Shown: positions 7,392-39,583, counted from the stretch's first letter. The stretch is 64,000 nt of DNA from Escherichia phage vB_EcoM-Sa45lw (MK977694.1); one strand, 5' to 3'. The notes: a model not told the origin generated them from the letters alone. Translations and numbers: made by a program.

Positions 7392-7421
7392 ATAATACCA
7401 CGGTTTGAACTTGTTGTAAAC
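7392..7421 (-). promoter_or_regulatory. T4-type early promoter (-35 GTTTAC, 18 bp, -10 TATTAT)
   Basis: Minus strand: aaagttGTTTACaacaagttcaaaccgtggTATTATtaacat; followed by SD+ATG. Confidence 0.6.
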
Positions 7422-7490
7422 AACTTTGTGAAAAATATTTCAGGGAATGATAAGAAAGGAACGATAGCTTAGAATGGTAATATACAGAAT

Positions 7491-7516
7491 GTAAGAAAGA
7501 AAGGCCCAGAGGGCCC
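7491..7516 (-). terminator. Intrinsic terminator (minus strand): GGGCC-tct-GGGCC hairpin + U-rich tract after nrdH-like stop
   Basis: Minus strand reads agatGGGCCctctGGGCCtttctttctt. Confidence 0.55.
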
Positions 7517-7519
7517 ATC

Positions 7520-7843
7520 TTAGTCTTCTATGATATCTCTATCATATCCAAGTGAAATGAGAGTTTCTTTGAAGTGTTTAATGTTCTTTTGTCTAGAATC
7601 ATTAATGAAAATGACTGGATAACGAATGTTAAGAGATGTGAATCCAGCGCGTTTAGCAAGAGATACAATCAGCGGACGATCATACTCAATCTTACCATTA
7701 TTTGTAAGAACTTTATAGAAAGTAAAAGGAGCATTGAGCTCCTTTAGAAGTTTTGTAACTGATTGACATCCAGGACAACGACCAACTTCATCTGGAATTC
7801 CGTAGACTTCAATCTTATTCTTTAAGTTCGAGTTTTGTTCCAC
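7520..7843 (-). CDS. Glutaredoxin/NrdH-like redoxin (CPGC active site)
   Basis: ...KIEVYGIPDEVGRCPGCQSVTKLL... thioredoxin-fold CxxC; probable GTG start at 7843 after AAGGA; the track's upstream extension to 7972 is low-complexity. Confidence 0.6.
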   Translation of the reverse strand: MEQNSNLKNKIEVYGIPDEVGRCPGCQSVTKLLKELNAPFTFYKVLTNNGKIEYDRPLIVSLAKRAGFTSLNIRYPVIFINDSRQKNIKHFKETLISLGYDRDIIED

Positions 7844-8126
7844 GAGAAATAATTCCTTGGTAAGCCCAATAAGGAGGATTAACAGAATCCTCACCAGAGT
7901 TTTCTTCAGGAAAATAAACCTGGATAACGAAGCCGGATTCATCAAAGGTGAAATAAGTAGTAGGCAGTTCACCTAACAAATCGGCACGGGCGTTGATTTC
8001 TTCGAGGTCTTGTTCACGTCCAGCCCAGAAGCTTGGGTTCAGACTACATTCATAGAAATAATAGTCATTACCGAACATATCAAAACCATTCCAACTCTCT
8101 ACTACATACCGCTCAAAACTAATCAT
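7815..8126 (-). CDS. Hypothetical protein (103 aa)
   Basis: ORF track; ATG start. Confidence 0.5.
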   Translation of the reverse strand: MISFERYVVESWNGFDMFGNDYYFYECSLNPSFWAGREQDLEEINARADLLGELPTTYFTFDESGFVIQVYFPEENSGEDSVNPPYWAYQGIISRGTKLELKE

Positions 8127-8128
8127 AA

Positions 8129-8344
8129 TTAAGCCTTTTTATCAAGAACAGCATTCAGCTTGTTAGTAATTTTATCCAGACGCTTATTGAACTCACTAGA
8201 AGATAAGCCCTTTTCTGGAGAAATTAAACTAATCACGAAAAATATAGCAATAAAAGGAATAAGGAAAATAGCTCCAACTGCCATAAACAGAAAGAATGTT
8301 ACAGTTGTAAGAAAATCAGCTAAACCTTTACGAAATTTATACAT
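8129..8344 (-). CDS. Hypothetical small membrane protein (71 aa)
   Basis: ORF track; hydrophobic segment VTFFLFMAVGAIFLIPFIAIFFVISLI. Confidence 0.5.
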   Translation of the reverse strand: MYKFRKGLADFLTTVTFFLFMAVGAIFLIPFIAIFFVISLISPEKGLSSSEFNKRLDKITNKLNAVLDKKA

Positions 8345-8459
8345 ATTTTACCCTTAATTAATTAACCAAGCATTGATAAGCACTAAACTATATTGCGAAT
8401 AAAATTCTGGACCAAAATGAAAAATCATATCATTTATAGTATCCATAATGTAATTCAAT

Positions 8460-8930
8460 TTAATCATGTTTCCACACCCCATCGGTATTTGACCAAAGTC
8501 GCTGATTATCTGATCCTCGCCACAGCTTTTTGGTCGGAAGATTTTTCTCATACTTCCCATCAATAATAACATCAACATATTTAAGCATTTCTAGTTGTTT
8601 AATATCTTCAAACTTATATCCTGTCCACAACCAAATGCTTTTATTGGGATAAAGATTTTTAATAGTTTGAACCACAGAGTGAATCATGTCTCTGTTATCA
8701 GGATAAAGAGGGTCACCCCCAGTTATAGTTAATCCTTCTATATAATCATTATTCAAACATTCAATTAATTGCTCTAGTGTCTCTCCAGTGAATGGAATAC
8801 CATTTCTAGCATTCCATGTTGATTTATTATAACACCCTTCGCATTTATGCAAACAACCTGTAACGAAAAGAACGACCCTGCAACCAGGGCCATTCACAAA
8901 ATCGCAAGGATAAAATCTATCATAATTCAT
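8460..8930 (-). CDS. nrdG: Anaerobic ribonucleotide reductase activase (radical SAM)
   Basis: 156 aa; CxxxCxxC-type cluster motif (GCLHKCEGCYN); immediately downstream of nrdD with overlap. Confidence 0.9.
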   Translation of the reverse strand: MNYDRFYPCDFVNGPGCRVVLFVTGCLHKCEGCYNKSTWNARNGIPFTGETLEQLIECLNNDYIEGLTITGGDPLYPDNRDMIHSVVQTIKNLYPNKSIWLWTGYKFEDIKQLEMLKYVDVIIDGKYEKNLPTKKLWRGSDNQRLWSNTDGVWKHD

Positions 8931-10744
8931 TGGTGTTTAACCCTATGCATGATTTCTTTATTTTTACCGAGATTAAATCCACGTTCGTTCGGATTTCCCA
9001 AATAACCACATGTTCTTCTTATTGTGTTCATCTTTTTAGGATCAGTTTCTCCACAGATAGAACAAACAAATCCGTTTTCAGTAGGAGTCATTTCATGGGT
9101 ACTTCCGCATGTAAAACATTTATCTACCGGCATATTAACACCAAAATAATCTAAATGTTGTGCAGCATAATCCCAGACAGCCTCAAGACCCTTTAAATTG
9201 TTTTTCATATCTGGAAGTTCAACATAAGAAATGTGACCGCCTGTCGCAATGAAATGATACGGCGCTTCGCGAGAAATCTTTTCAAACGGAGTAATATTTT
9301 CTTCTACTGAAACATGGAAACTGTTAGTGTACCAGCCTTTATCGGTAACATCCTTTACACTTCCATATTTTTCGGTATCGAGTTTACAGAAGCGATAACA
9401 AAGGTTTTCAGCAGGAGTCGAATATAAACTAAAAGCAAATCCGGTTCTTTCAGTCCACTGCTTAAGACGAGCATTCATTTTAGTTAAAATTTCTTGTCCA
9501 ATATCACGACCGACAAGAATATTCAATTCATGAATACCAATGTATCCTAAAGACACTGAACTTCTGCCGTTTTTAAATAACTCAATTATATCGTCATCAG
9601 GTTTAAGACGAACCCCGAATGCACCTTCTTGGTAAAGAATAGGAGCAACAGTCGCTTTAACTCCTTTTAAGGAACTAATTCTACACATCAAAGCTTCAAA
9701 ACATAAATCCATTCGCTCATTGAACAATTCGATAAATTTCTGTTCATTGAACTGTGTTCCAATATAAGAATCTAATGCGATACGAGGAAGATTCAGTGTT
9801 ACAACACCAAGATTATTACGGCCGTCAAGAATTTCATTACCGGTTGAATCTTTCCACACGCTCAAGAAACTACGACAACCCATTGGAGAAACAGGAATAG
9901 ATGAGCCAGTGATAGCTTTATTGTTCTTAGCTGAAATAATATCAGGATACATTCTTTTGCTTGCGCACTCTAGAGCAAGCTGTTTAATATCATAGTTCGG
10001 GTCGTCTTTATAAAGATTAACACCTTCTTCAACGAACATAACAAGCTTAGGGAAAATAGGAGTTATCCCATCACGACCGAGACCTTTAATACGATTTTTC
10101 AGAATTGCTTTCTGAATCATTCGTTCAGTCCAGTCAGTTCCCGTACCAAATGTAATTGTTACAAAAGGAGTCTGTCCGTTTGAACTAAAGAGAGTATTTA
10201 CTTCATATTCATAAGCTTGGAATGCATCGTATACGTCTTTTTCTGTTTTAGATTGAGCATAATTCAACGCATCAGCGATTTGCCATTTTTCTGCATCTTC
10301 AATATGTTTTGCATAGGTGCGTTTAACATAAGGAGAAAGTACTTTATCTACATTAGCAAAAGTCGTTCCGCCGTATTGATGGGAAGCAACCTGTGCAGTA
10401 ATTTGTGCCATAATTGCAGTAGCAACACCGATTGATTTAGGAGTTTCAATCTGCGCATTACCTAGCTTAAATCCGTTCTCAAGCATTCCTTTTAAATCTA
10501 CTAAACAACAATTAGTAAATGGAAGAGCAGGGGAATAATCAATATCATGGAAATGAATAATTCCGCTTTCATGCGCTTTCATAATAAAAGACGGGACCAT
10601 ATTTTTGGCAATGTGCTTAGACACAATACCAGCCATAAGGTCCCGTTGAGTTGGAAAAACACGAGAATCTTTATTAGCATTCTCGTTTAAAAGGTCTTTA
10701 TTAGTTTTATGAATCAATCCTTCAATTTCTTTTTCAATTGTCAT
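8927..10744 (-). CDS. nrdD: Anaerobic ribonucleoside-triphosphate reductase (glycyl-radical enzyme), uninterrupted
   Basis: 605 aa; C-terminal glycyl-radical motif RTCGYLG and Zn-ribbon CxxC..CxxC; single continuous ORF, no intron. Confidence 0.93.
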   Translation of the reverse strand: MTIEKEIEGLIHKTNKDLLNENANKDSRVFPTQRDLMAGIVSKHIAKNMVPSFIMKAHESGIIHFHDIDYSPALPFTNCCLVDLKGMLENGFKLGNAQIETPKSIGVATAIMAQITAQVASHQYGGTTFANVDKVLSPYVKRTYAKHIEDAEKWQIADALNYAQSKTEKDVYDAFQAYEYEVNTLFSSNGQTPFVTITFGTGTDWTERMIQKAILKNRIKGLGRDGITPIFPKLVMFVEEGVNLYKDDPNYDIKQLALECASKRMYPDIISAKNNKAITGSSIPVSPMGCRSFLSVWKDSTGNEILDGRNNLGVVTLNLPRIALDSYIGTQFNEQKFIELFNERMDLCFEALMCRISSLKGVKATVAPILYQEGAFGVRLKPDDDIIELFKNGRSSVSLGYIGIHELNILVGRDIGQEILTKMNARLKQWTERTGFAFSLYSTPAENLCYRFCKLDTEKYGSVKDVTDKGWYTNSFHVSVEENITPFEKISREAPYHFIATGGHISYVELPDMKNNLKGLEAVWDYAAQHLDYFGVNMPVDKCFTCGSTHEMTPTENGFVCSICGETDPKKMNTIRRTCGYLGNPNERGFNLGKNKEIMHRVKHQ

Positions 10745-11214
10745 TTTAAACTCTTTCTAAGCTGCTTCTTAAATGAAGCTATTAATTGTGTTTTGGTGTC
10801 AGATTCATTATATTCAAATCCTCTTTGAAGCATCTCGGCCATCATTTCCTCTTTTCCTAAACGAGAAAATTCCTTTGATTTATCTCCAACAAAGTTAGGG
10901 TGAATATTATTTTTGGTGTAATCGGATTTTAAATAAGTAAGTAAATTTTCTAACCATTCAAGATAATCAACACCTTGTCCCTTTAAGCCAGAACGATTAA
11001 ATTTATGCTTCATTTGACCTTCTGCGGCATTACAGAGATTACAAAGCAATCCACGCACCTTTCCTGCTTTCGGTCCATTTAATTCATGGTCATGGTCGAG
11101 GTGATTAGCTTGAACATCAGGATTTAGTTCTCGTTGGCAAATTAAACATTTACCATTTTGTGCATCATAAAATTTCTGTTTTTCTTCTTTGTATAATTTG
11201 CCAGTCAATAACAT
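10741..11214 (-). CDS. 49: Endonuclease VII (Holliday junction resolvase)
   Basis: 157 aa; Zn-binding CLICQ...CNLCN and HLDHDH motif; matches T4 gp49 length and position. Confidence 0.9.
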   Translation of the reverse strand: MLLTGKLYKEEKQKFYDAQNGKCLICQRELNPDVQANHLDHDHELNGPKAGKVRGLLCNLCNAAEGQMKHKFNRSGLKGQGVDYLEWLENLLTYLKSDYTKNNIHPNFVGDKSKEFSRLGKEEMMAEMLQRGFEYNESDTKTQLIASFKKQLRKSLK

Positions 11215-11878: not shown

Positions 11879-12001
11879 GTCCCATCTCCATATCAATTAA
11901 GTCATTTATCGTTGGTTCATTATATATTGTTTCTTCATCAGTGTAAACCGGTTCTTCCGGCTCTGGCTCTGCAGTTTCCCATCTAGCCGCCCACCAAGGT
12001 T

Positions 12002-12322: not shown

Positions 12323-12332
12323 TTTTCACCAA

Positions 12333-15625: not shown

Positions 15626-15655
15626 ATTATACCACATCCTTGTGGTAAAGTAAAC
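15626..15655 (-). promoter_or_regulatory. T4-type early promoter (GTTTAC, 18 bp, TATAAT) for paralog 2
   Basis: Minus strand: actaGTTTACtttaccacaaggatgtggTATAATgttc; -35 overlaps stop of upstream gene. Confidence 0.6.
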
Positions 15656-18595: not shown

Positions 18596-18625
18596 ATAGT
18601 ACCACAGAGGAATGGTCTTGTAAAC
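18596..18625 (-). promoter_or_regulatory. T4-type early promoter (GTTTAC, 18 bp, TACTAT)
   Basis: Minus strand: tagttGTTTACaagaccattcctctgtggTACTATacaac. Confidence 0.6.
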
Positions 18626-20036: not shown

Positions 20037-20066
20037 ATAGTACCATAAAGCTTTATGCTTGTAAAC
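20037..20066 (-). promoter_or_regulatory. T4-type early promoter (GTTTAC, 18 bp, TACTAT) for ATPase gene
   Basis: Minus strand: aaattGTTTACaagcataaagctttatggTACTATacaac. Confidence 0.6.
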
Positions 20067-20091: not shown

Positions 20092-20115
20092 AAAAAAGGG
20101 AGCCCGAAGGCTCCC
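20092..20115 (-). terminator. Intrinsic terminator (minus strand): GGGAGCC-UUCG-GGCUCCC hairpin + U6, 2 nt after NTase stop
   Basis: Minus strand reads tgataGGGAGCCTTCGGGCTCCCttttttatttc. Confidence 0.65.
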
Positions 20116-20117
20116 TA

Positions 20118-21131: not shown

Positions 21132-21589
21132 TCAGCCTTATATTCAATAACAGGACATACTTTAGCTTTACGAGCTTTTAAAAATTCAACGATAATCGAT
21201 TTCTTGGGTTGAATAGGAGGTAAACCTTTATTTTTCCTATCAATATTTTCTACGTGTAAAGCATAATCCTTTTTCCATTTATAATCTTTATATTTTTCAC
21301 GCAAATGTACAGGAATAACAAATGAACCAATAATAAGTAAAACAACCAAAAGCGCAAGTATAAATGCCGATGGAAGAAGAGCCCATAAACTACCGAAAAT
21401 AAGCCAACGTTGTAGGCTTTCTGCACAAATAATTGTTAATCCTACGAGTATAGCACACCCAAAAATAGAAACGAAAAATGTAGGTATGGCAATAGACCAA
21501 AAATATGCGCATAGTGTCTTAGGTCGTTGCCATTCATCGTTAAACAATTTGAATAATTTATAGTGCCAAGAGTTTTCATTAATAATCAT
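21128..21589 (-). CDS. Hypothetical membrane protein (153 aa, ~3 TM)
   Basis: ORF track; hydrophobic stretches. Confidence 0.55.
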   Translation of the reverse strand: MIINENSWHYKLFKLFNDEWQRPKTLCAYFWSIAIPTFFVSIFGCAILVGLTIICAESLQRWLIFGSLWALLPSAFILALLVVLLIIGSFVIPVHLREKYKDYKWKKDYALHVENIDRKNKGLPPIQPKKSIIVEFLKARKAKVCPVIEYKAE

Positions 21590-21591
21590 AA

Positions 21592-22113
21592 TTATCCTTT
21601 CATTGAAGGCGTAACGGTTGTTAAATACTTAATCATAGCTTCAGCTTCTGATTTTGATAGTGAAATTTCTTCACCGTTTTGGCGAATAGAAACAAAATCT
21701 GGATGACGATCACCACCAGCTTTTAAAACACACATATAAGTATCAGCTTCGCCTTCAATATTTGAAATGATTGAAGCAGTTCCACACGAATGTGGTTTTT
21801 GATAAATCAATACAGCTTTTCTTCCACCATTTGACTGTTCATAGGCTTTTAATACATCAAACAAATCAGTTCTTTTATCAATAGCTAAAATGTTATTTTC
21901 ATCTTCAATGTTAAATCCTTCGGATACTTCATAAAGCGTTACCCATAAATCGCCAATATCAATAACAGCATTTACTTTTCCACGGCTTTCAAGAGTATGA
22001 CAAATTTTCTTGATTTCGTCATAACTCATTTTAATAATATCATCTCCTTGACTAAGAAAGATGTCATTTTTAAATTCAACACGAATTAAACCGCTTCCAC
22101 TTGAAATAAACAT
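21592..22113 (-). CDS. Hypothetical protein (173 aa), paralog of 22120..22677
   Basis: ORF track; shares GFNIE and C-terminal KYLTTVTPSMKG / KTYLDSVIPTMISK motifs with neighbour. Confidence 0.55.
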   Translation of the reverse strand: MFISSGSGLIRVEFKNDIFLSQGDDIIKMSYDEIKKICHTLESRGKVNAVIDIGDLWVTLYEVSEGFNIEDENNILAIDKRTDLFDVLKAYEQSNGGRKAVLIYQKPHSCGTASIISNIEGEADTYMCVLKAGGDRHPDFVSIRQNGEEISLSKSEAEAMIKYLTTVTPSMKG

Positions 22114-22812: not shown

Positions 22813-22842
22813 ACTATACCATAACCTTGCCAACTTGTAAAC
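22813..22842 (-). promoter_or_regulatory. T4-type early promoter (GTTTAC, 18 bp, TATAGT)
   Basis: Minus strand: taatgGTTTACaagttggcaaggttatggTATAGTaatc; followed by GAGGAG+ATG of a 34-codon ORF. Confidence 0.55.
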
Positions 22843-23624: not shown

Positions 23625-23654
23625 ATAGTATCACAGCTCAAACGGAAAGTAAAC
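23625..23654 (-). promoter_or_regulatory. T4-type early promoter (GTTTAC, 18 bp, TACTAT)
   Basis: Minus strand: ccgGTTTACtttccgtttgagctgtgaTACTATacaac. Confidence 0.6.
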
Positions 23655-23664: not shown

Positions 23665-23686
23665 AAAAAAGTCTCCCGAAGGAGAC
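23665..23686 (-). terminator. Intrinsic terminator (minus strand): GUCUCC-UUCG-GGAGAC + U6 after rI.-1-position gene
   Basis: Minus strand reads cattaGTCTCCTTCGGGAGACttttttcatttt. Confidence 0.65.
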
Positions 23687-23691
23687 TAATG

Positions 23692-27817: not shown

Positions 27818-27847
27818 ATTATACCACAGTCAAGAGGAAAAGTAAAC
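27818..27847 (-). promoter_or_regulatory. T4-type early promoter (GTTTAC, 18 bp, TATAAT) for regB
   Basis: Minus strand: actGTTTACttttcctcttgactgtggTATAATttttc; GAGGAG + ATG follow. Confidence 0.65.
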
Positions 27848-27849
27848 AG

Positions 27850-28128
27850 TTATTCTTTAAATCTAATCAATTTATTCATAGACTTTGAAACTTCTGCACG
27901 AACCTCATGTAGATTTTTGAGCTGTTCAAGACGCTGCGTATAGTAAGCAATTTCATCTTCTTCGAGACAGTCCTGTGAATCTTCTTTAAGATAACGCGCA
28001 TAATCCTGGAAAGCTTTACGGACTACTTCCTGGAAGTCATCAAGACTTTGAATTTTCTTAGGAGCGGCAGATACACGACGAGGTGCAGTATAATACTCAT
28101 AACCAAACCCTGCGCTTAATTGAGCCAT
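27850..28128 (-). CDS. Hypothetical protein (92 aa from ATG)
   Basis: Track ORF 27850..28170 begins at GTG; ATG at 28128 overlaps upstream stop (TAATG). Confidence 0.5.
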
Positions 28129-28394
28129 TAGTATTTTTCCTCTGGTTGGAACACTGCGCGACAAGCCCACATACTAGCTTCTTTGAGTTTCGTTTTAGCA
28201 ATAGTTAACTGATCGAGGCTTTCAGCATAATTCTTCGCGAGTTCATCATCTTCACAGCTATCGAATGCTTCCCAGAATTCATCGTATAAAGCATCAAAGA
28301 TAAGTCCTAAACGAACTTCAGCGTCTTTGATAGCATTCACTTTACCGATTTTCTCTTCAGTATGCGGCTTATAACCTTTAATGTCTTCAATCAT
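28128..28394 (-). CDS. Hypothetical acidic protein (88 aa from ATG)
   Basis: ATG at 28394 with GAGGAA 6 nt upstream; track start 28430 is TTG. Confidence 0.5.
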
Positions 28395-28608
28395 ATTTGA
28401 CTTCCTCACCAGTACATAAATCATATTCAACTAAACGAATAGGTTCATGAATGCCATATCCTTGAACAGAAATTTCTGTCGTAGGATAAATTCCATCAAT
28501 ATCACCCATATTCCAGGCTTCATTAAATTGCTGTTCGCCTGAATTACTAAACCACTCGGCGAAAGCATTTAGCACATCTTTAGAACCTTCAATAATTATC
28601 TTTGCCAT
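28387..28608 (-). CDS. Hypothetical protein (73 aa)
   Basis: ORF track; ATG overlapping GrcA-like stop (TAATG). Confidence 0.45.
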   Translation of the reverse strand: MAKIIIEGSKDVLNAFAEWFSNSGEQQFNEAWNMGDIDGIYPTTEISVQGYGIHEPIRLVEYDLCTGEEVKYD

Positions 28609-28970
28609 TACAAACTCTCAGTAAAGGTACGAGCGATAACGTCGCGCTGCTGTTCCGGAGTCAGAGAGTTAAAGCGAACTGCATATCCGGATACACGGAT
28701 GGTCAGCTGCGGATATTTTTCCGGATGCTTAACTGCATCTTCCAGAGTTTCGCGACGCAGAACGTTAACGTTCAGGTGTTGACCACCTTCAATTTTAACT
28801 GTAGGCTGTGGCTCAATTTCAATTTCACGGGCATGCAAACCATAGAAAATTTCTGGGTCTACAAAAGAGTCCTCTTTAAAGGTTTTAGAAACGATAATTC
28901 GTGCTTGAATACCATCTTCAAAATAAATAGTACCTTTATGTGTGCCTTCAAGAATTTGATATGCTTTCAT
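28608..28970 (-). CDS. Autonomous glycyl-radical cofactor (GrcA/YfiD-like)
   Basis: C-terminal ~70 aa ([61 protein letters not shown]) matches remembered E. coli GrcA glycyl-radical domain almost exactly. Confidence 0.8.
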
Positions 28971-28977
28971 ATAAACC

Positions 28978-29307
28978 TCAATTAGAAAATAAATTTATCC
29001 AAGATTGTTCTTTAATTAAAAACGGCTCAGAATCATATGCCATTAAACTTTGGGTAATTAATCCTTTAAAAGGTCCATCAATAAATTCCATGGTAAAATA
29101 TGGAATTTTATTCATTAACTGCGCGTTAGGAGCAGTGCACAAAACTCTGCATCCTTTGAATACGCCTTTTTGTAATTTGTATTGCTTGGGATAAAATTCG
29201 CTCAAAATGTTATTATTTGCCAAAATTTCAAAATGATTCACCAATTTATTTTTAATAGTTTTTGGCGAAAAATAAAGATATTCGAAAAGCTGTGTGTCTG
29301 TCATCAT
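28978..29307 (-). CDS. Hypothetical protein (109 aa)
   Basis: ORF track; ATG start. Confidence 0.5.
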
Positions 29308-29894
29308 TGCATTCCAATCACAAAAAATTGAGGACGAACTGTTTCACCTGTTTCAGCATTATAGCTTCGACAACAGTGTTGTACCGTTTTAATATGGATA
29401 TTGTAAATCTTATCCATATCAGGAGCTTTAATAGGTTCGTCAATTATGTACAAGATACGAGAAAGCGATAACCCACGGAATTTATGACCTTCATTACCGA
29501 TAAAACTACGGACAGAATCAGTAAATAAACGGAATCGAATATCATCATTAGAATAACGCGAAAATTCCTTTTTAATGTTATTTGCAGAAATTTTAGCGTA
29601 AGCTGAAGTATTAGAAAGAACAATAACTGTTCCGCCATCATACAGCCAATTAGCAGCAAAGTTAGTCACAGCAATTGATTTACCGGATTGACGTCCACCA
29701 TCTATACGAAGTGTGCAGTACTGTTTGAGCACATCTTCCATTGGTGGAAGATAATCATTCTTACAAATTTCTTCTACTCTAGCATCAGAATGGTGTGTAA
29801 AAGCATTCATCAGGGATAGATAAGGACCAGTTAAAAATGTTCTCATTTTATTCTCTCTAAGTTTGGGCCATTCCGTGGCGCATGAATTGTCCAT
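29304..29894 (-). CDS. Small P-loop NTPase-like protein (196 aa)
   Basis: Walker A-like GGRQSGKS and Walker B-like RILYIIDEP; start may be internal (ATG 29846). Confidence 0.5.
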   Translation of the reverse strand: MDNSCATEWPKLRENKMRTFLTGPYLSLMNAFTHHSDARVEEICKNDYLPPMEDVLKQYCTLRIDGGRQSGKSIAVTNFAANWLYDGGTVIVLSNTSAYAKISANNIKKEFSRYSNDDIRFRLFTDSVRSFIGNEGHKFRGLSLSRILYIIDEPIKAPDMDKIYNIHIKTVQHCCRSYNAETGETVRPQFFVIGMQ

Positions 29895-29987
29895 TTCTGT
29901 ATTTACCCATTACCGCACTTGGGCTCGACCTTATCACAGGTTGGCGGGAATCCCTCACAGAATCATGAGGTCCAGGTTGTTCCCATA

Positions 29988-30461
29988 TTATTTGAACGAT
30001 TTAACGTACTGAATAGAACCCTTACTATTCACAAAGGCAATTTTACCATTTTTATTATACATGGTAGCAGTACGCTGATAACCATAGGTTTGTTTACCAG
30101 ATTGATAACCAACTAATGCAAAATTATCTTCACCCATTTTATTCTGTTTAGCGCGAATGCGTTCATGACCATGTGCCATAAGAACCTTAGCATCACCAGT
30201 TGCAATGGATCGACGAGTTTTTTCATCTTCAACTGCATTAACAAAGTCGTCAAATGAATCAAATTTAGCATGAGATTTATTATACAATTTTCCATCTACT
30301 GCATAATTATATCCCTGTACATCCATTTCAACTTCTGTACCATCATCCAATACAGCAGTAATTTTTTGACCTTTTTTAAATTTCAAAAGATCAGTAAAAG
30401 ATTCAGCAATAATTTGAGAATTAATAGCTGCTTCAGTGATAAATTCTTGATATGTTTTCAT
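29988..30461 (-). CDS. Internal head protein-like (capsid-targeting N-terminus MKTYQEFITE)
   Basis: N-terminal 10 residues match the T4 internal-protein CTS consensus MKTYQEFIAE (gp21 protease site after E10); 157 aa; lies downstream of denV rather than between denV and e as in T4. Confidence 0.6.
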   Translation of the reverse strand: MKTYQEFITEAAINSQIIAESFTDLLKFKKGQKITAVLDDGTEVEMDVQGYNYAVDGKLYNKSHAKFDSFDDFVNAVEDEKTRRSIATGDAKVLMAHGHERIRAKQNKMGEDNFALVGYQSGKQTYGYQRTATMYNKNGKIAFVNSKGSIQYVKSFK

Positions 30462-30470
30462 GGGTTTCCT

Positions 30471-30887
30471 TTAAATGTAAATATTTTTACCGTAATACTT
30501 ATACCAATGTGGTTTCATTAAAATTTTTTCATCAAGTCGTTGTTGACTCAATTTAATAGCTGATTTGCATGGATTATAATCATTTTTCCATTCTATTGGA
30601 ATATCGCTGATGTCAGGAACTTCAGTATCTTTTATACTGAACCCGCGTTTTAAGCATTCCGTTATAATGTCTAATTGACGCTTTCGCAAAAATTCTAACT
30701 TATCGTAAAAGAACGTAACATGACCAGAACCTAAAATAAACTCGGAAGATATTTTAAAATCTTTAACGCGCTTACCGTTTGCCACATGCTTACGAACTAT
30801 ACCAAAAACACGCGGCAATTCACGGTATTCTGCGATTAAATGTTGATCAGCAAGTTCAGATACTAAAGTCAAATTAATACGAGTCAT
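30471..30887 (-). CDS. denV: Endonuclease V (pyrimidine-dimer DNA glycosylase)
   Basis: 138 aa [38 protein letters not shown]... matches remembered T4 endo V. Confidence 0.9.
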
Positions 30888-30912
30888 TTTATCCCTCCAA
30901 GTAACTGTGAAT

Positions 30913-30942
30913 ATACTATCACAATTCTAGGAGAAAGTAAAC
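30913..30942 (-). promoter_or_regulatory. T4-type early promoter (GTTTAC, 18 bp, TAGTAT) for denV
   Basis: Minus strand: aaagttGTTTACtttctcctagaattgtgaTAGTATattc; GGAGG + ATG follow. Confidence 0.6.
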
Positions 30943-33169: not shown

Positions 33170-33722
33170 ATTTTTCTAATAATAAATCGCTTTCAAAATT
33201 GGGATTTTCTACGAATTTATCAAAAAGATCATCGACAATAGTTAAGATATTCTTTTTACTAAGAATACGTTTATTTTCATGCTTCGTTTCAGAATCAACT
33301 ATAAGAGTAAAGAAATATTTCTTGCCCTGAAATTTTACAGTAGTATCAATATAGAATAAATTTGACTTTTGTAAATTACGTTTAAACCATGCATCACTTA
33401 AACTATAAACGCCAAGATAATCATAATCGTCGTTTAAATAACAGACCGTCCATTCAGGAGAAACAAAATCAGTAAATTCAACGTCAAAATCGCATGTTAA
33501 TAAATGAATTGATTCAATACTGTTAATAAGTATTCCAGGACGTATTAAAGACTTTTTACCTTTATAAAATCCAGAAAGACTTTCATCAGTTTCATATGAA
33601 GAACCCCAATAATAATTACGTCCTTCTGCCATACGTTTAAGAGCATTTAATAATTGGTCTGGAACATCAACCTGTCTTTGGAACTCTTCAAACATTGAAT
33701 TGAAATCACTTTGCATTTTCAT
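33117..33722 (-). CDS. Hypothetical protein (201 aa)
   Basis: ORF track; ATG start. Confidence 0.5.
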   Translation of the reverse strand: MKMQSDFNSMFEEFQRQVDVPDQLLNALKRMAEGRNYYWGSSYETDESLSGFYKGKKSLIRPGILINSIESIHLLTCDFDVEFTDFVSPEWTVCYLNDDYDYLGVYSLSDAWFKRNLQKSNLFYIDTTVKFQGKKYFFTLIVDSETKHENKRILSKKNILTIVDDLFDKFVENPNFESDLLLEKFVKECREYVKTITIPSK

Positions 33723-34357: not shown

Positions 34358-34400
34358 AGTATTTCCTTAGGTTGATTAGAAATTAAAATCTGCAGAAGAA

Positions 34401-34934
34401 TTATATCATGCTACTTAAGAGATGTAAACTATTTTTAATTTTACAAATTCGTTCAGCTTCTTCAACAGCGGCAGTGATAATGCTTTTAGCTATAGGAGTA
34501 CTAATACTAGTAGCTTTTACACTTAACACGATTTCTTTATCTTTACCAGGCCAACCCCACGATTTTTCACCATGGGTGCCTTTAATTACAGCAGACACCT
34601 CAAGTGAGCATCCATTATCGCATGTTTTTACATTAACAACCCAAGTGTCACTTTTCTCAACCGGTTTATCCCAGTAAATATTAAGAATACGTGGAACATC
34701 AAATTTAGCAGGGCAAATCTTAACCGTAAGACCTTCGCTTTCTAGCCAATTAATAAGAGGGCGTTCATACATGCGGCGATGTGGGCTTTGAACTCGACAA
34801 GCTTTGTACCCATTGCTTGCGGCTTCACTAAGCTCTTCTAATACCTGCTTTTGCATTATTGATAAGATACCATCAAAAGATTTTTCGGAAGTTTCATTCA
34901 GTTCGGTATAAAGAGACATAACAGTTTTCCTCAA
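34401..34934 (-). CDS. Hypothetical protein (177 aa)
   Basis: ORF track. Confidence 0.5.
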   Translation of the reverse strand: MRKTVMSLYTELNETSEKSFDGILSIMQKQVLEELSEAASNGYKACRVQSPHRRMYERPLINWLESEGLTVKICPAKFDVPRILNIYWDKPVEKSDTWVVNVKTCDNGCSLEVSAVIKGTHGEKSWGWPGKDKEIVLSVKATSISTPIAKSIITAAVEEAERICKIKNSLHLLSSMI

Positions 34935-35282: not shown

Positions 35283-35312
35283 ATAGTACCATAGAAGAAC
35301 AGGGATGTAAAC
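35283..35312 (-). promoter_or_regulatory. T4-type early promoter (GTTTAC, 18 bp, TACTAT)
   Basis: Minus strand: aaactGTTTACatccctgttcttctatggTACTATacaac. Confidence 0.6.
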
Positions 35313-35445: not shown

Positions 35446-35472
35446 AAAAGCCCCAACCTTTCGGCTAGGGCT
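35446..35472 (-). terminator. Intrinsic terminator (minus strand) after IP-like gene: GCCCUAGCC-GAAA-GGUUGGGGC + U5
   Basis: Near-identical copy of the terminator at 36004..36030. Confidence 0.6.
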
Positions 35473-35479
35473 AAGAATG

Positions 35480-35953
35480 TTATTTGATTTGTTTAGCAGA
35501 CCAAATGCGGTCTTTAATAATTTTTTGGATATCTTCAACATACTCAAGAGAGTGAGCATGTGGGTTATCTTTGAAACTATAAGCACGAGCTAGTTTTTGG
35601 CCTTCAGTTTTGATTACTAAAAGCTCTTTAAGGATAGCTTCATATTTGGAGATAATTCCTTTAACAATATTTTTCTCTTGTGCGACTTTAGGATCTGCTT
35701 TAGGAGCAGGTTTACCCGAAGCCTTTGCAAAAGCAGCGCCAGTAGCAACTAAACTTTTCCAGGCCATACTAACTGCATTTCCCGTAAATCCTTCCGCTTT
35801 CATGTCGCGTGCGAACTGGAATCGTGATTCATCAGAAGCATCTTTGTAAGAATATTTACCCGCTGCAATGGCTGCTTTTGCGACAGCTTGAATTTCGGTG
35901 CTAGATGCTTCATTTAACACCGCTTCATTTAAAAATTGAGTATATGATTTCAT
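35480..35953 (-). CDS. Internal head protein-like (CTS-type N-terminus MKSYTQFLNE), 157 aa
   Basis: N-terminus resembles T4 internal-protein capsid-targeting sequence; Ala/Lys-rich; own late promoter; flanked by duplicated terminators. Confidence 0.55.
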   Translation of the reverse strand: MKSYTQFLNEAVLNEASSTEIQAVAKAAIAAGKYSYKDASDESRFQFARDMKAEGFTGNAVSMAWKSLVATGAAFAKASGKPAPKADPKVAQEKNIVKGIISKYEAILKELLVIKTEGQKLARAYSFKDNPHAHSLEYVEDIQKIIKDRIWSAKQIK

Positions 35954-35993
35954 CTTATTTCCTGTTTTAATTCGTGGATTTAATATACTACTA

Positions 35994-36001
35994 TATTTAT
36001 A
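35994..36001 (-). promoter_or_regulatory. T4 late promoter TATAAATA upstream of IP-like gene
   Basis: Exact TATAAATA on minus strand ~40 nt upstream of ATG at 35953. Confidence 0.55.
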
Positions 36002-36003
36002 CC

Positions 36004-36030
36004 AAAAAGCCCCAACCTTTCGGTCGGGGC
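36004..36030 (-). terminator. Intrinsic terminator (minus strand) downstream of tRNA/stable-RNA region: GCCCCGACC-GAAA-GGUUGGGGC + U5
   Basis: Minus strand reads agCCCCGACCgaaaGGTTGGGGcttttt. Confidence 0.65.
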
Positions 36031-36039
36031 TAAGCCTTG

Positions 36040-36335
36040 CGGCAACCTTGTCGGGGTTCCACCTGCTAAGGCAAGTGTTTGTACGAAACGCCGGGATTCG
36101 AACCCGGTTATTAAGCAGTTGACGCTACTCAATATTTTTAAAAGGCCATATCTCGACCATATCCGAACGTTCCGTCAAAAACGCTACTCGGCTTACGGCA
36201 AAGATATTTCCTCGAATCGATAATTCGGTGCGCCGTTTCTGCTGTGATGTAAGAGGGCATCAATAAACGCAAAGATTATTAACGCAATTCCTTACTCAGG
36301 GAACATCAGTCCGACGACTTACCGGTAGCGACCCG
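36040..36335 (-). ncRNA. Candidate tRNA-like stable RNA region (possible counterpart of T4 species 1/2 RNAs); boundaries not resolved
   Basis: No ORF; minus strand carries a T-arm-like CCGGG-TTCGAAT-CCCGG at 36091..36107 followed by terminator; position downstream of tRNA-Arg. Confidence 0.3.
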
Positions 36336-36340
36336 GTTTC

Positions 36341-36691
36341 TTAATATTCTTTTAAAGCATCAATCTGTTTACGGCGTTCACGCCATAAATCAATTGCTTC
36401 ATACGCGGATTCAACATTTCGAATTGGACGGCATTTATATAAAGATTTGTGATTTTGATATTGCGTAGATAACGGAATTTTATCTAAAAGGTCTTTACGT
36501 TCAAAGTATTCGTAACCATCTAAGCCAAATGAACGATTTTTGAGAAATTGCCAATGACCAAATTCGTTTTGAATATAAATATAATCCGCATGTTGATAAA
36601 GTAAATTAATTTCACGAAATGAGATATGTTTTTCATATTCATTGAAGTAAAATGTTAAATCATGAACTACTAAATAAACATTACCTTTCAT
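36341..36691 (-). CDS. Hypothetical protein (116 aa) embedded in the tRNA/stable-RNA locus
   Basis: ORF track; long ORF for AT-rich sequence; no GIY-YIG/HNH motif. Confidence 0.45.
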   Translation of the reverse strand: MKGNVYLVVHDLTFYFNEYEKHISFREINLLYQHADYIYIQNEFGHWQFLKNRSFGLDGYEYFERKDLLDKIPLSTQYQNHKSLYKCRPIRNVESAYEAIDLWRERRKQIDALKEY

Positions 36692-36709
36692 ATTTTCCTC
36701 ACTTATAAT

Positions 36710-36785
36710 TGGTCGAGGCAGTAGGGATCGAACCTACGACCTAGGACTTAGAAGGTCCTTGCTCTTCCTTCTGAGCTATGCCCCG
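36710..36785 (-). tRNA. tRNA-Arg (anticodon UCU)
   Basis: Manual cloverleaf: acceptor CGGGGCA/TGCCTCG, anticodon loop CTTCTAA, T-arm GTAGG-TTCGATC-CCTAC, CCA encoded; 76 nt. Confidence 0.85.
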
Positions 36786-36789
36786 TAAT

Positions 36790-36865
36790 TGGGGTGACCG
36801 ATGGGAGTCGAACCCATGACTACGAGAATCACAATCTCGAGTTCTACCAACTGAACTACGGCCAC
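36790..36865 (-). tRNA. tRNA-His-like (anticodon GUG), discriminator C, no encoded G-1
   Basis: Acceptor GTGGCCG/CGGTCAC, D-arm GTTC-AGTTGGTA-GAAC, anticodon loop TTGTGAT, T-arm ATGGG-TTCGACT-CCCAT, CCA encoded; resembles E. coli tRNA-His. Confidence 0.7.
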
Positions 36866-36979
36866 ATTAATACCTACTCCAACAATCAAGATGTCTTCAC
36901 ACGAAATTAAGAGAAGAGTGATCAGTTCAACCCCTATAATCGCGTCAAGTAGATATTAATGTGACAGTTGTCACAAATT

Positions 36980-37054
36980 TGGCGGACGTGATAGGATTCG
37001 AACCTATAACCAATCGCTTAACAGGCGATCGCTCTGCCATTGAGCTACACATCC
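36980..37054 (-). tRNA. tRNA-Asn (anticodon GUU)
   Basis: Acceptor GGATGTG/CACGTCC, anticodon stem-loop ATCGC-CTGTTAA-GCGAT, T-arm ATAGG-TTCGAAT-CCTAT, CCA encoded; 75 nt. Confidence 0.8.
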
Positions 37055-37058
37055 AAAT

Positions 37059-37145
37059 TGGTGGGGAGTGATGGAGTCGAACCACCCGAGTCGCAATGAC
37101 AATGAATTTACAGTCCACACCGCTACCTCTACGGGATAACTCCCC
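37059..37145 (-). tRNA. tRNA-Tyr (anticodon GUA), class II with long variable arm
   Basis: Acceptor GGGGAGT/ACTCCCC, anticodon loop CTGTAAA, variable arm TGTCATTGCGACTCG (cf. E. coli tRNA-Tyr), T-loop TTCGACT, CCA encoded; 87 nt. Confidence 0.8.
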
Positions 37146-37157
37146 TAATTCATAATT

Positions 37158-37232
37158 TGGTGGCCCTGGGTGGAATTGAACCACCATCTGGCGATTATGA
37201 GTCGCTTGCTTGAACCTTCCAGCTACAGGGCC
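37158..37232 (-). tRNA. tRNA with anticodon CAU (T4 tRNA-Ile-type, lysidine-dependent, or Met)
   Basis: Acceptor GGCCCTG/CAGGGCC, anticodon loop CTCATAA, T-arm GGTGG-TTCAATT-CCACC, CCA encoded; 75 nt. Confidence 0.8.
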
Positions 37233-37233
37233 T

Positions 37234-37309
37234 TGGTGCTGATTGACGGAATCGAACCGCCGACCTTCTCATTACAAGTGAGTTGCTCTACCTACTGAGC
37301 TAAATCAGC
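37234..37309 (-). tRNA. tRNA-Thr (anticodon UGU)
   Basis: Acceptor GCTGATT/AATCAGC, anticodon stem-loop ACTCA-CTTGTAA-TGAGA, T-loop TTCGATT, CCA encoded; 76 nt. Confidence 0.85.
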
Positions 37310-37314
37310 AAAAC

Positions 37315-37404
37315 TGGCGGAGGTGATAGGATTCGAACCTATGAATCGCCGGAGCGACTGCCGGTTTTCAAGACCGGTGCATTCAACCACTCTGCCACAC
37401 CTCC
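37315..37404 (-). tRNA. tRNA-Ser (anticodon UGA), class II
   Basis: Acceptor GGAGGTG/CACCTCC, anticodon stem-loop CCGGT-CTTGAAA-ACCGG, long variable arm, T-loop TTCGAAT, CCA encoded; 90 nt. Confidence 0.85.
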
Positions 37405-37406
37405 AG

Positions 37407-37480
37407 TCTCCATACAAGGATTTGAACCTTGGACCTCCTGATCCCAAATCAGGCGCTCTACCAAACTGAGCTACACGGAG
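37407..37480 (-). tRNA. tRNA-Pro (anticodon UGG), CCA not encoded
   Basis: Acceptor CTCCGTG/TATGGAG (two G-U), anticodon stem-loop CCTGA-TTTGGGA-TCAGG, T-loop TTCAAAT; only 2 nt from tRNA-Ser 5' end (dimeric precursor as in T4). Confidence 0.8.
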
Positions 37481-37490
37481 TAAATTAAAT

Positions 37491-37564
<74 letters not shown>

Positions 37565-37569
37565 AAATT

Positions 37570-37656
37570 TGGTGCGAGAAGTGGGACTCGAACCCACAAG
37601 GAAATCATTCCGCAGCATTTTAAGTGCTGTGCCTTTACCAATTTGACCATTCTCGC
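37570..37656 (-). tRNA. tRNA-Leu (anticodon UAA), class II
   Basis: Sequence GCGAGAATGGTCAAATTGGTAAAGGCACAGCACTTAAAATGCTGCGG...CACCA matches remembered T4 tRNA-Leu; 87 nt. Confidence 0.9.
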
Positions 37657-37657
37657 G

Positions 37658-37730
37658 CTGGGAATAAAGGACTCGAACCTTTGCATCCTGGAATCAAAAT
37701 CCAGTGCCTTACCAACTTGGCTAATTCCCA
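37658..37730 (-). tRNA. tRNA-Gln (anticodon UUG), CCA not encoded
   Basis: TGGGAATTAGCCAAGTTGGTAAGGCACTGGATTTTGATTCCAGG... acceptor TGGGAAT/ATTCCCA; abuts tRNA-Leu (Gln-Leu dimeric precursor as in T4). Confidence 0.9.
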
Positions 37731-37815
37731 ATTATTAACAAAGGCTCTCAAGCAGAACCCTTGATGATAGAGGGTATTAATCAGTGCGGTATGAGTTAAT
37801 AATAACAAATAATTC

Positions 37816-38340
37816 TTAAAGCAAATTAAACATTTTAACGGTCGGCAAAACAATTTCTTCTTCTATATAAGAGTATTTAACACTCTCAACTACACGCAAG
37901 AAATCATAGTCATAATATTCAGAAGCATGACCAAGAATATCAATAAGGCCTTCAAATATCTTATTACCATTCACAAAGAATAAGTCAAATACACGTTCTT
38001 CATCTTCTTCGGATTTATTACCAAGGTCAACTTCTATATCAAAGACCTTTTTAATGAATTCTGGATAAAGTTGTTCTGAGAACAGTCCTTCAACCAAGTA
38101 TTCATAAATAAAAAGCGATTGCTCGCTGAACAAGCCATTACCACAATAACGTTCAGCTTTAGTACTAGAATGTCTGCTTTTAAACTTCTTTAAAAGATAT
38201 TGGAACTGTAAGATTTCATGCTCTTCTACGCCAAACAGTGTTTTAGTTTTATAGTTGTCACCATCATTTTCCCAGGTAGTGACATCAATTACGTAACCCT
38301 GCGGAATTGTAGTACCTAAACAAATATTCATTTTCACCAC
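37816..38340 (-). CDS. Hypothetical acidic protein (174 aa)
   Basis: ORF track; upstream of tRNA cluster. Confidence 0.5.
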   Translation of the reverse strand: MVKMNICLGTTIPQGYVIDVTTWENDGDNYKTKTLFGVEEHEILQFQYLLKKFKSRHSSTKAERYCGNGLFSEQSLFIYEYLVEGLFSEQLYPEFIKKVFDIEVDLGNKSEEDEERVFDLFFVNGNKIFEGLIDILGHASEYYDYDFLRVVESVKYSYIEEEIVLPTVKMFNLL

Positions 38341-38624
38341 GCTGCATTAATATAAGTATATTTAATACATTCAAGACTTAAAGGATTCTTGAAAATATCA
38401 TATTCAAGAGGACCTTTTTCTGTTTCAATAAAGAAATCAAAATTTACTGTATTAAATTTACGGTCTTCCTTCACTAATTTAACCTGAGAAGATGAACGGT
38501 CAATGTAAACCTTTTCAACTTCAAAACATGTTAAAATGCCATAATCATCAATCAAGGCTTTAGCTGCTTCTTGATCATATTTATATCCATTTTCAATGGA
38601 CGATACTTTAGCATAAAGAATCAT
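38334..38624 (-). CDS. Hypothetical protein (96 aa)
   Basis: ORF track. Confidence 0.5.
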   Translation of the reverse strand: MILYAKVSSIENGYKYDQEAAKALIDDYGILTCFEVEKVYIDRSSSQVKLVKEDRKFNTVNFDFFIETEKGPLEYDIFKNPLSLECIKYTYINAAW

Positions 38625-38626
38625 TA

Positions 38627-39007
38627 TTACCCTTCATCAACAATAGTATGAGTGTGGGCATTTACAATTTGCCACCAATCAAAGCGATTAGAACCATACA
38701 TTGGTTTGTTCTCATTTTCTTTGATAATGTCACGGAGTTCATCTTCGGTAGCGGCTTTCGCGATTAAATCAGCATATCCACCGCGAGGATAATAATTATC
38801 ACCTGCAAAAAGTAAAAAGTTTGGTTTAATGTTATTGAACTCTTCAAGAGTAATAACTGTTCCACCAGGTTGAACAATATCTACATAACTATATCCTAAT
38901 TTTTGAGCAGCATCTACTGCTTCAAGCAAGGTATCATGAGCCCATCCAATTTGGCAATCTGGCTTTTCAGATGGATTAGCCTGATAATCTGCATATACTT
39001 TATACAT
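38627..39007 (-). CDS. Hypothetical protein (126 aa from ATG)
   Basis: ATG at 39007 with GGTGAG SD; track start 39046 upstream. Confidence 0.5.
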   Translation of the reverse strand: MYKVYADYQANPSEKPDCQIGWAHDTLLEAVDAAQKLGYSYVDIVQPGGTVITLEEFNNIKPNFLLFAGDNYYPRGGYADLIAKAATEDELRDIIKENENKPMYGSNRFDWWQIVNAHTHTIVDEG

Positions 39008-39008
39008 T

Positions 39009-39194
39009 TTACTCACCTTTAGAAATTTTATCCATAACGATAGCAATTAAACCAATTAAAAATGCTACTACAAGTGAAAATACATTTTCTGCTGTAGTTA
39101 ATAATCCGCATATAAATCCAACAAACATTGAAAAACTAAAAGCGGAAGCAGAAATTGCAATAGCAACATTTCGAATTAATTCACAGCGTTTCAT
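39009..39194 (-). CDS. Hypothetical small membrane protein (61 aa from ATG)
   Basis: ATG at 39194 with GAGGAG directly after early promoter; two hydrophobic helices. Confidence 0.45.
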   Translation of the reverse strand: MKRCELIRNVAIAISASAFSFSMFVGFICGLLTTAENVFSLVVAFLIGLIAIVMDKISKGE

Positions 39195-39222
39195 TTTATT
39201 CTCCTCAGTAGTTGATAGGGTA

Positions 39223-39252
39223 ATAGTATCACTACTAAAACCCCGTGTAAAC
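39223..39252 (-). promoter_or_regulatory. T4-type early promoter (GTTTAC, 18 bp, TACTAT)
   Basis: Minus strand: aaagttGTTTACacggggttttagtagtgaTACTATtacc; near-duplicate of module at 39554..39583. Confidence 0.6.
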
Positions 39253-39264
39253 AACTTTGTGAAA

Positions 39265-39522
39265 TTATTTTAAATCTTCTAATCGTTTCTTCATCTTAGA
39301 ACCATTTTTAGCGATTTCTCCTGCGTCAGAGCATAATGCTAAAAGTGCTTTAACTTTAGTTTGGTCTCCTTTAAAAGACGAAGGATCGACTGCAGCAGCA
39401 AGTTCTTTAATACGAGAGAAAAGACGCTCAGCTTCAGCTAAAGCCATTCCAAGCTTTACTTCCATACCATGAGAAGATTCAGTGATAATAGTTTCTGTAG
39501 CAAACTCTTTATAAGTTTTCAT
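39265..39522 (-). CDS. Internal protein I-like (CTS-type N-terminus MKTYKEFATE), 85 aa
   Basis: CTS-like N-terminus; position immediately downstream of 57B as T4 ipI; own early promoter. Confidence 0.6.
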   Translation of the reverse strand: MKTYKEFATETIITESSHGMEVKLGMALAEAERLFSRIKELAAAVDPSSFKGDQTKVKALLALCSDAGEIAKNGSKMKKRLEDLK

Positions 39523-39553
39523 TTTATTTTTCCTAATTAATTTTGATGAGGTA

Positions 39554-39583
39554 ATAGTATCACTACCTCATCAGTGTGTAAAC
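39554..39583 (-). promoter_or_regulatory. T4-type early promoter (GTTTAC, 18 bp, TACTAT) for ipI-like gene
   Basis: Minus strand: aaagttGTTTACacactgatgaggtagtgaTACTATtacc. Confidence 0.6.

Follow-up and report, generated by a model that had tools for sequence, protein, structure and literature searches.

The 64,000-nt stretch of Escherichia phage vB_EcoM-Sa45lw (MK977694.1) analyzed here, which we call the window, carries a set of nearly identical motifs among its accessory genes, and these motifs are very probably early promoters of the phage T4 type. The pattern GTTTAC-N18-TANNAT was matched exactly at 13 positions where 0.40 were expected, every one of them on the minus strand, and shuffled sequences never contained more than two. 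A looser scan, which tolerated one mismatch in GTTTAC and spacings of 17 to 19 and required TGn, returned 16 minus-strand matches and no plus-strand match where about one per strand was expected. Twelve of these 16 sites combine a perfect GTTTAC with TGn and a spacing of exactly 18; these good sites lie at positions 7392, 15626, 18596, 20037, 22813, 23625, 27818, 30913, 34400, 35283, 39223, and 39554, and each is named below by its coordinate (P7392 and so on). The -10 hexamer is TAnnAT at 11 of them and TATAGT at P22813.

The early promoters of T4 are read by the unmodified host sigma-70 RNA polymerase right after infection. An A/T-rich UP element contacts the C-terminal domains of the alpha subunits, GTTTAC(a/t) serves as the -35 element, and an optimal 17-bp spacer leads to the extended -10 element TGnTAnnAT. 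Transcription starts approximately 7 nt past the -10 element, and a short series of small accessory genes is expressed from each promoter.

The same architecture was found in the window. All 12 good sites have the perfect -35 element at the canonical distance, since the apparent 18-bp spacing is the 17-bp sigma-70 spacer with the hexamer frame shifted by one base (17 nt from TTTACn). The extended -10 dinucleotide is likewise present in all 12, and the 25 nt upstream are 60-88% A+T (65% for random 25-mers), many of these UP regions sharing tttcacaaagtt. A Shine-Dalgarno (SD) sequence and an ATG start codon follow 25-43 nt downstream of the -10 element. The promoters occupy gaps of 27-240 nt, compared with a genome-wide median intergenic gap of 2 nt. 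No MotA box (TGCTT centred at -30), the mark of middle as opposed to early promoters, was present at any of the early-promoter sites examined, and a middle-promoter identity was ruled out for them.

A first-pass annotation, made from the sequence alone, had read 11 of these motifs as early promoters, and the sites do show every sequence hallmark, have T4 orthologues, and are co-oriented with early genes in sizeable intergenic gaps. Its formula for the -10 hexamer, TA(C/T/G)(T/A)AT at 18 bp from GTTTAC, was exact at 10 of the 11 sites but not at P22813, and its list was incomplete: the sites at 34400 and 6947, and one at 1959 outside its range, had been overlooked. The spacing it called invariant holds at all 12 good sites; in the orthologues of the more divergent phage ST2 the spacer is one base shorter at several sites. 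The extended shared flanks that it described were recovered by an unprompted repeat search, in which the promoter modules formed the largest direct-repeat families (59-86 nt, 60-86% identity). A multiple alignment of the modules, as that annotation had proposed, showed GTTTAC, TG, TA, and the last T of the -10 element to be invariant, with the consensus tttcacaaagttGTTTACa...TGTGGTACTATa..cctatcaactactGAGGAGaataaaATG. With a position weight matrix derived from the 12 sites, nothing new scored above threshold; as the matrix was overfitted (leave-one-out scores of -2 to 52), we relied on explicit pattern scans.

Correspondence with the early promoters of T4

The window is a segment of a Tequatrovirus genome. 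Pieces of 9 kb and 24 kb matched hundreds of Tequatrovirus (T4-like) genomes at 95-98% identity, the top match being Shigella phage Sf23 (97.7%), and position 1 of the window aligned to position 33,711 of T4. Up to approximately 42 kb the window carries early and middle genes on the minus strand (46, 47, a-gt, 55, nrdH/G/D, 49, pin, nrdC-nrdC.11, mobD.x, and rI, followed by tk, vs, regB, denV, e, a transfer RNA (tRNA) cluster, internal-protein genes, 57A/B, 1, 3, 2, and 4), and beyond it late genes on the plus strand.

We compared the promoters with their orthologues in T4, T6, Sf23, and ST2. All 12 good sites have counterparts at the corresponding places of T4, T6, and Sf23 that agree at almost every base, even where the flanks diverge, and most are also present in ST2. 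With the start site taken as the seventh base after the -10 element, the T4 starts predicted for the orthologues of the sites at 1959, 6947, and 22813 (35,662, 41,225, and 57,954) agree exactly with the map units of Pe35.3, Pe40.4, and Pe57954, and the start predicted for P34400, approximately 69,931, fits Pe69.9. These four promoters are given by Patterson-West et al. 2018, and Pe35.3 and Pe40.4 were assayed by primer extension (PMC6024815); the regB promoter has been called a "typical early promoter" (PMC3014915). Because of this agreement with the published map units and the orthologues in T4, T6, and Sf23, we assign the elements to the T4 early promoters. They share with the "über" promoter architecture reviewed by Hinton 2010 (PMC2988021) the UP element, GTTTAC, 17-bp spacer, TGn, and TAnnAT, on the same strand and at the same positions as one-to-one orthologues. 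There is no substantive difference, only a few substitutions and other downstream genes at some sites, such as denV rather than ipIII after e.

Loose consensus matching was uninformative here, because a generic sigma-70 scan found promoter-like sites at the level of shuffled sequence (84 compared with 83.5, and 77 compared with 72.2), as would be expected if the motifs were functionless chance resemblances in A/T-rich DNA. The specific motif, in contrast, is 30-fold over-represented, strictly confined to one strand, and placed in intergenic gaps ahead of an SD and an ATG; its orthologous positions are conserved despite diverged flanks and coincide with mapped T4 start sites. A chance origin can thus be dismissed as practically negligible on the motif statistics, the orthology, and the match to published starts. 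The assignment as T4-type promoters is tempered in that we infer activity in this phage from T4 orthology: four to five sites are tied to published T4 coordinates, and the remaining sites rest on sequence orthology. The GenBank and RefSeq records of T4 contain zero promoter features. The features are collected in Table 1.

Table 1. Early promoters and associated terminator-like hairpins, in window coordinates
Feature	Position	Strand	Sequence and comparison
Early promoter with TTTTAC and TATAGT	1959..1988	-	Matches T4 Pe35.3
Early promoter inside the 3' part of gene 55.5	6947..6976	-	Full match, without TGn; matches T4 Pe40.4
Early promoter upstream of gene 55.6	7392..7421	-	Exact motif, TGG; T4 orthologue -10 end at 41,677; in T4, T6, Sf23
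GC hairpin and T-run near P7392	7516-7502	-	About 80 nt upstream of the promoter
Early promoter upstream of nrdC.4	15626..15655	-	Exact motif, orthologues; small hairpin TACCACA/TGTGGTA in spacer and -10
Early promoter upstream of nrdC.8	18596..18625	-	Exact motif, orthologues; hairpin dG -15.8
Early promoter upstream of nrdC.10	20037..20066	-	Exact motif, orthologues
UUCG-tetraloop intrinsic terminator after nrdC.11	20097..20116	-	AGGGAGCCttcgGGCTCCCT then T6 (six T); 30 nt before P20037; labelled a putative terminator in the KAW1E185 annotation
Early promoter upstream of mobD.2	22813..22842	-	-10 TATAGT; matches T4 Pe57954; orthologues
Early promoter upstream of mobD.5	23625..23654	-	Exact motif, orthologues
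UUCG-tetraloop terminator after rI.-1	23670..23687	-	AGTCTCCttcgGGAGACT then T5 (five T); 15 nt before P23625
regB early promoter	27818..27847	-	Exact motif, orthologues; hairpin dG -21.3; T6 deletion junction, one side
Early promoter after gene e (denV here, ipIII in T4)	30913..30942	-	Exact motif, orthologues; T6 deletion junction, other side
Early promoter upstream of e.6	34400..34429	-	Full match with TGn; matches T4 Pe69.9; at the e.7 replacement breakpoint 34374
Early promoter upstream of e.8	35283..35312	-	Exact motif; near-identical even in distant ST2
Early promoter upstream of trna.4	39223..39252	-	Downstream edge of the internal-protein cassette; T4 and T6 breakpoints inside
Early promoter upstream of the 85-aa internal head protein gene (39265-39522)	39554..39583	-	Exact motif, orthologues

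Three further promoter-like elements were noted on the minus strand. A perfect GTTTAC-N18-TATAAT at 11919-11948, inside gene 49.1 and 40 nt before the pin start codon, is kept in T4 (predicted start site 47,416); it is a doubtful promoter because its upstream region is GC-rich and TGn is absent. The element at 41044-41073 upstream of gene 1 (dNMP kinase), GTTTAAtgcttca...TGTTATAAT, has GTTTAA and a TGCTT MotA box, for which reason it is probably the middle promoter of gene 1 and not an early one. Within the first 35 codons of nrdG (8826-8895), a strong hairpin, GAATGGCCCTGGttgcAGGGTCGTTC, and a T-run precede a near-consensus promoter, GTTTGC-N17-TGTTATAAT; this spot is the exact site of mobC in T4 and of segH in T6.

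Hairpins and terminators at the promoters

Orthologue alignments revealed inverted repeats with arms that flank the -10 hexamer. We folded a 48-nt unit from the spacer to +24 as RNA and compared its stability with that of dinucleotide shuffles. Five of the 12 promoters gave strongly negative z-scores (-4.2 at P18596, -5.9 at P22813, -6.9 at P27818, -4.7 at P30913, and -5.3 at P39554), and P15626 and P39223 gave approximately -1.7. At P18596, P27818, and P30913, upstream of nrdC.8, regB, and denV, respectively, a CT-rich 5' arm located right after GTTTAC pairs with the downstream SD, which lies within the 3' arm (dG of -15.8 to -21.3, z of -4.2 to -6.9). The spacer TTCCTCTGTGGTA pairs with TACGGAGGAA, containing the SD, at P18596; TTTTCCTCTTGACTG pairs with CAGTTAAGAGGAGAA, containing the regB SD, at P27818; and TTTCTCC...TGTGA pairs with the denV SD region at P30913. 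The remaining spanning stems join the spacer to +1 to +14 with the extended -10 element in the loop; the hairpin is 15 bp long at P22813, again with the -10 element in the loop, and 13 bp long at P39554.

Among 34 early promoters of three lineages (the window, ST2, and the locus L021), 17 had z values of -3 or lower, compared with 2.4% of random 48-mers and 8.7% of promoter-less upstream segments containing an SD (Mann-Whitney p=1e-8 and 9e-6, respectively). The regB promoter was followed further; as a pattern scan of viral contigs yielded only 5 loci and a RegB protein scan 11, the diversity was drawn from the phage collection instead. A spacer-SD stem was present in seven of nine divergent lineages (Tequatrovirus, the ST2-like group, loci L020-L022, Gelderlandvirus, Karamvirus, and Jiaodavirus) with z values of -4.4 to -7.6, and one further lineage has a hairpin with the -10 element in its loop. 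The distal parts of these stems differ yet stay complementary in at least six genera (CTTGACTG/CAGTTAAG, CTAGTTG/CAACTAG, TGTAAG/CTTACA, and CTTTATG/CATAAAG); this covariation was read directly from sequences whose stems differ in length and register. A compensatory change was also seen at P22813, where one stem position is A-T in T4, G-C in Sf23, and G.U in the window.

Folded as the sense strand, the spanning hairpins gain 4.2 kcal/mol in stability over the antisense strand, compared with 0.6 kcal/mol expected from composition (p=1e-5), and contain 37 G.U pairs against three A.C mismatches. Because the sense strand is the more stable and G.U pairs far exceed A.C mismatches, selection appears to have acted on the RNA and not on a cruciform in the DNA. 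The repeats could alternatively act as DNA, extruded as cruciforms or bound as operators by a protein that shuts off early promoters: they overlap the -10 element, where an operator would be expected, and the shut-off mechanism has been stated to be incompletely understood (PMC3014915). The stems are, however, wholly different between promoters and lineages, so that no common operator is apparent. A cruciform should be symmetric, and we rejected it on the strand asymmetry of folding and the G.U excess. The distribution of the hairpins relative to upstream terminators, described below, would also be hard to explain for a DNA element. On balance, we consider action at the DNA level improbable and favour an RNA function.

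The first-pass annotation had described the modules as often paired with tetraloop hairpins and several as lying directly after a GC-rich one, which overstates the association. Direct succession held at P20037 and P23625, which lie 15-30 nt past a UUCG hairpin and its T-run, but not at the other 10 of the 12 promoters. Counted loosely, four promoters have such a structure, since P7392 follows a more distant GC hairpin and P35283 has a terminator-like GAAA hairpin 137 nt upstream; hairpin scans of the window found no terminator-like hairpin upstream of the remaining eight. In the set of 34 promoters, a spanning hairpin occurred in one of the 10 with an upstream terminator and in 16 of the 24 without (Fisher p=0.003). 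This near-exclusivity, together with the covarying stems, suggests that the hairpins may provide translational insulation of read-through transcripts.

The -10 element is part of either the loop or the 5' arm, and the start site, placed 7 nt past it via published T4 coordinates, falls within or after the loop. The promoter's own transcript would for this reason lack the 5' arm; hence its SD would be free, and the hairpin would form on read-through RNA only. We put forward with considerable reserve that approximately half of T4-like early promoters are built into a sense-strand hairpin that silences downstream translation on read-through RNA, so that each module, including regB, is expressed only from its own promoter in the first minutes. 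Transcripts reading through from an upstream promoter would be kept from expressing the next module by either of two devices. The first, at a minority of modules, would be an intrinsic terminator ahead of the module; the second, at approximately half, would be an RNA hairpin that spans it, with the spacer as 5' arm and the transcribed start, often including the SD, as 3' arm. Read-through RNA would fold into this hairpin and leave the first gene of the next module untranslated. A GGAG masked in the hairpin might perhaps also be protected from cleavage by RegB, an enzyme inhibited by secondary structure. Two points count against this proposal. Orthologous promoters among the 34 are not statistically independent, and approximately half of the spanning hairpins exclude the SD; therefore, translational masking cannot account for all of them. 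We regard the promoter-spanning hairpins as a computationally well-supported side result of modest interest.

A comparable logic is known for late promoters of T4, which lie in hairpins that sequester the ribosome-binding sites of e, soc, 49, 25, 26, I-TevI-III, and segB; a review describes the known cases as "all late genes" (PMC2988022). There, too, an upstream segment pairs with the SD, the promoter lies within the hairpin DNA, and its own transcript lacks the 5' arm. In the window, however, an early sigma-70 promoter is embedded instead of the late gp55 promoter TATAAATA, the hairpin would insulate early units from one another and not set the timing from early to late, and approximately half of the hairpins leave the SD uncovered. 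CT-rich "insulator" motifs in bacterial sigma-54 promoters are also reported to be promoter-internal and to be associated with reduced downstream expression on transcriptional read-through (bioRxiv 10.1101/086108). They involve another sigma factor and organism and are short motifs for which pairing with the SD is our assumption, unlike the covarying stems of 12-18 bp described here. We found no description of hairpin-spanned early promoters in the literature searched, older subscription papers lying outside that search. An Rfam search of the window returned tRNAs only.

Gene exchange at the promoter modules

The first-pass annotation had also proposed that the modules mark boundaries and offer short homologies for exchange, and had called for a comparison among T-even genomes. 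In our comparison of the window with four genomes (T4, T6, Sf23, and KAW1E185), the T6 junction, the KAW1E185 insertion, and the internal-protein swaps at modules bear this out. T6 lacks window positions 27848-30929, from vs.3 to denV, a 3.1-kb deletion. The one promoter left between e and regB is chimeric, agreeing with P30913 at all but one of the bases compared upstream of GTTTAC and matching P27818 completely downstream. The crossover lies inside TGTTTACTTT, which P27818 and P30913 have in common. In KAW1E185, a 275-nt open reading frame (ORF) is inserted directly after ...TATACAACTATCAA of P20037, just past the -10/+1 region.

Internal-protein genes were exchanged at module edges. An 85-aa internal head protein gene (PHROG 3499) takes the place of T4 ipI between P39554 and P39223, and T6 has an extra Ip6 cassette at P39223. 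The promoter after gene e drives ipIII in T4 and denV in the window, with divergence beginning approximately 20 nt past the -10 element, and P30913 is the boundary of the T4 ipIII/ipII replacement. Altogether, breakpoints relative to T4, T6, or KAW1E185 lie in or at P20037, P27818, P30913, P34400, P39223, and P39554. The modules make up 4% of the region and contain seven of the 45 breakpoint clusters (binomial p=0.002).

The modules of 60-90 nt are mutually similar, and because of this resemblance the phage recombination machinery may occasionally cross over between them or at their edges; the intervening genes would then be deleted, inserted, or swapped. This reading, which we draw from sequence comparison, is that of the published promoter-early stem-loop (PeSL) model. 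PeSL cassettes have the same consensus (TTTACW-N17-TAYWAT, given for T4 and PST; PMC4122927), lie in hyperplastic regions between small accessory ORFs, and mark the junctions of indels and replacements between close relatives; recombination between cassettes has been proposed for them (Arbiol 2010, PMC2839356; Comeau 2014, PMC4122927). As our observations match this concept, the promoters and the exchange model are already known, as T4 early promoters and PeSLs.

Several results limit the fit of the model to the window. The stem-loop that defines a PeSL, placed upstream of the promoter in both papers, is adjacent to only the two promoters named above, or four by the loose count. Breakpoints sit at gene junctions in general, and relative to ordinary junctions the enrichment is modest, with breakpoints at six of 10 promoter junctions and 24 of 74 others (odds ratio approximately 3, p approximately 0.09; the Fisher test is approximate at this level, because the greedy gene caller missed the P7392 and P20037 junctions). 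Most indels are homing endonuclease genes (mobB, mobC, mobD, I-TevII, segB, and a seg-like gene) or fall at promoter-less junctions.

In a stronger version of the model, the modules would be first of all mobile or recombinogenic cassettes on which a dedicated site-specific recombinase acts, and their role as promoters would come second. Junctions inside modules or at their edges fit this idea, as do the mini-circles between PeSLs shown by inverse polymerase chain reaction in RB49 and phi1 (PMC2839356). However, the T6 crossover took place in a 10-nt microhomology, as expected of the general microhomology recombination of T4, for which deletion in this same region has been observed experimentally (PMC9391042); the crossover points vary among the -35 element, the edge of the UP element, and the +1 to +20 region; most indels lie elsewhere; and no recombinase is known, a matter that the PeSL authors left open. 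We therefore judge a dedicated recombinase very improbable. It is less probable than not that the similarity of neighbouring modules, especially P39223 and P39554, arose by tandem duplication of gene cassettes and not by convergent constraint on promoters. These two modules, with 86% identity over 69 nt, lie on either side of an internal-protein gene, and T6 has two internal-protein genes there, each with a promoter copy; the other modules, in contrast, precede unrelated genes and share only functional promoter positions and the +1 region. Occasional crossover between modules that resemble one another as promoters is the reading we prefer.

Additional rearrangements were observed in the same region. 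Between the inserted ORF and nrdC.10 of KAW1E185 (7975-8075 of locus L004, minus strand) lies a promoter remnant, GATAGGACTATGTTATAGTAGTCCTATCAA, that has a -10 but no -35 element; it keeps the inverted repeat with the -10 element in the loop, and this repeat, ATAGGACTA/TAGTCCTAT, recurs at several promoters of ST2 and of locus L018. At 29988-30887 of the window (minus strand), e is followed by denV and then by a 157-aa internal virion protein gene (PHROG 3155), compared with ipIII, ipII, and denV in T4; over 60 nt, the 5' end of this virion protein gene is shared with the beginning of T4 ipII. A different 157-aa ORF (35480-35953, minus strand; PHROG 2280, of unknown function) in the segment 35440-36034 is absent from T4 and T6. 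It is bounded by two 36-nt direct repeats, 92% identical, each with a GAAA-tetraloop terminator (hairpins 35449-35472 and 36008-36031), and the T4 late-promoter consensus TATAAATA follows the upstream copy; judged by these elements, the segment looks like a stem-loop-bounded cassette with a late promoter.

The tRNA cluster (36710-37730, minus strand) encodes 11 tRNAs (Arg, His, Asn, Tyr, Met, Thr, Ser, Pro, Gly, Leu, and Gln), compared with eight in T4, and segB is absent. Also missing from the window are the homing endonuclease genes mobB, mobC, and mobD of T4 and its nrdD intron with I-TevII (4107-4132, 8910-8930, 10206-10209, and 21132-22095). In place of mobD (21132-22095), the window shares with T6 and Sf23 two ORFs, one of PHROG 944 (membrane protein) and one of PHROG 1502.

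Implications for T4-like phages

With the promoters assigned, the transcription units can be annotated correctly in the accessory region of a T4-like phage, which includes anti-defence and internal-protein genes. The comparative junctions, especially the T6 deletion with its crossover inside the -35 element, provide clean illustrations of the PeSL model. If the insulation proposal is true, the hairpins would explain how densely packed early modules are expressed independently without terminators. The hairpin would then be an alternative to the intrinsic terminator, and a promoter cassette would carry its own insulation wherever recombination places it. For the engineering of T4-like phages, a payload inserted behind such a promoter would alter what the hairpin masks.

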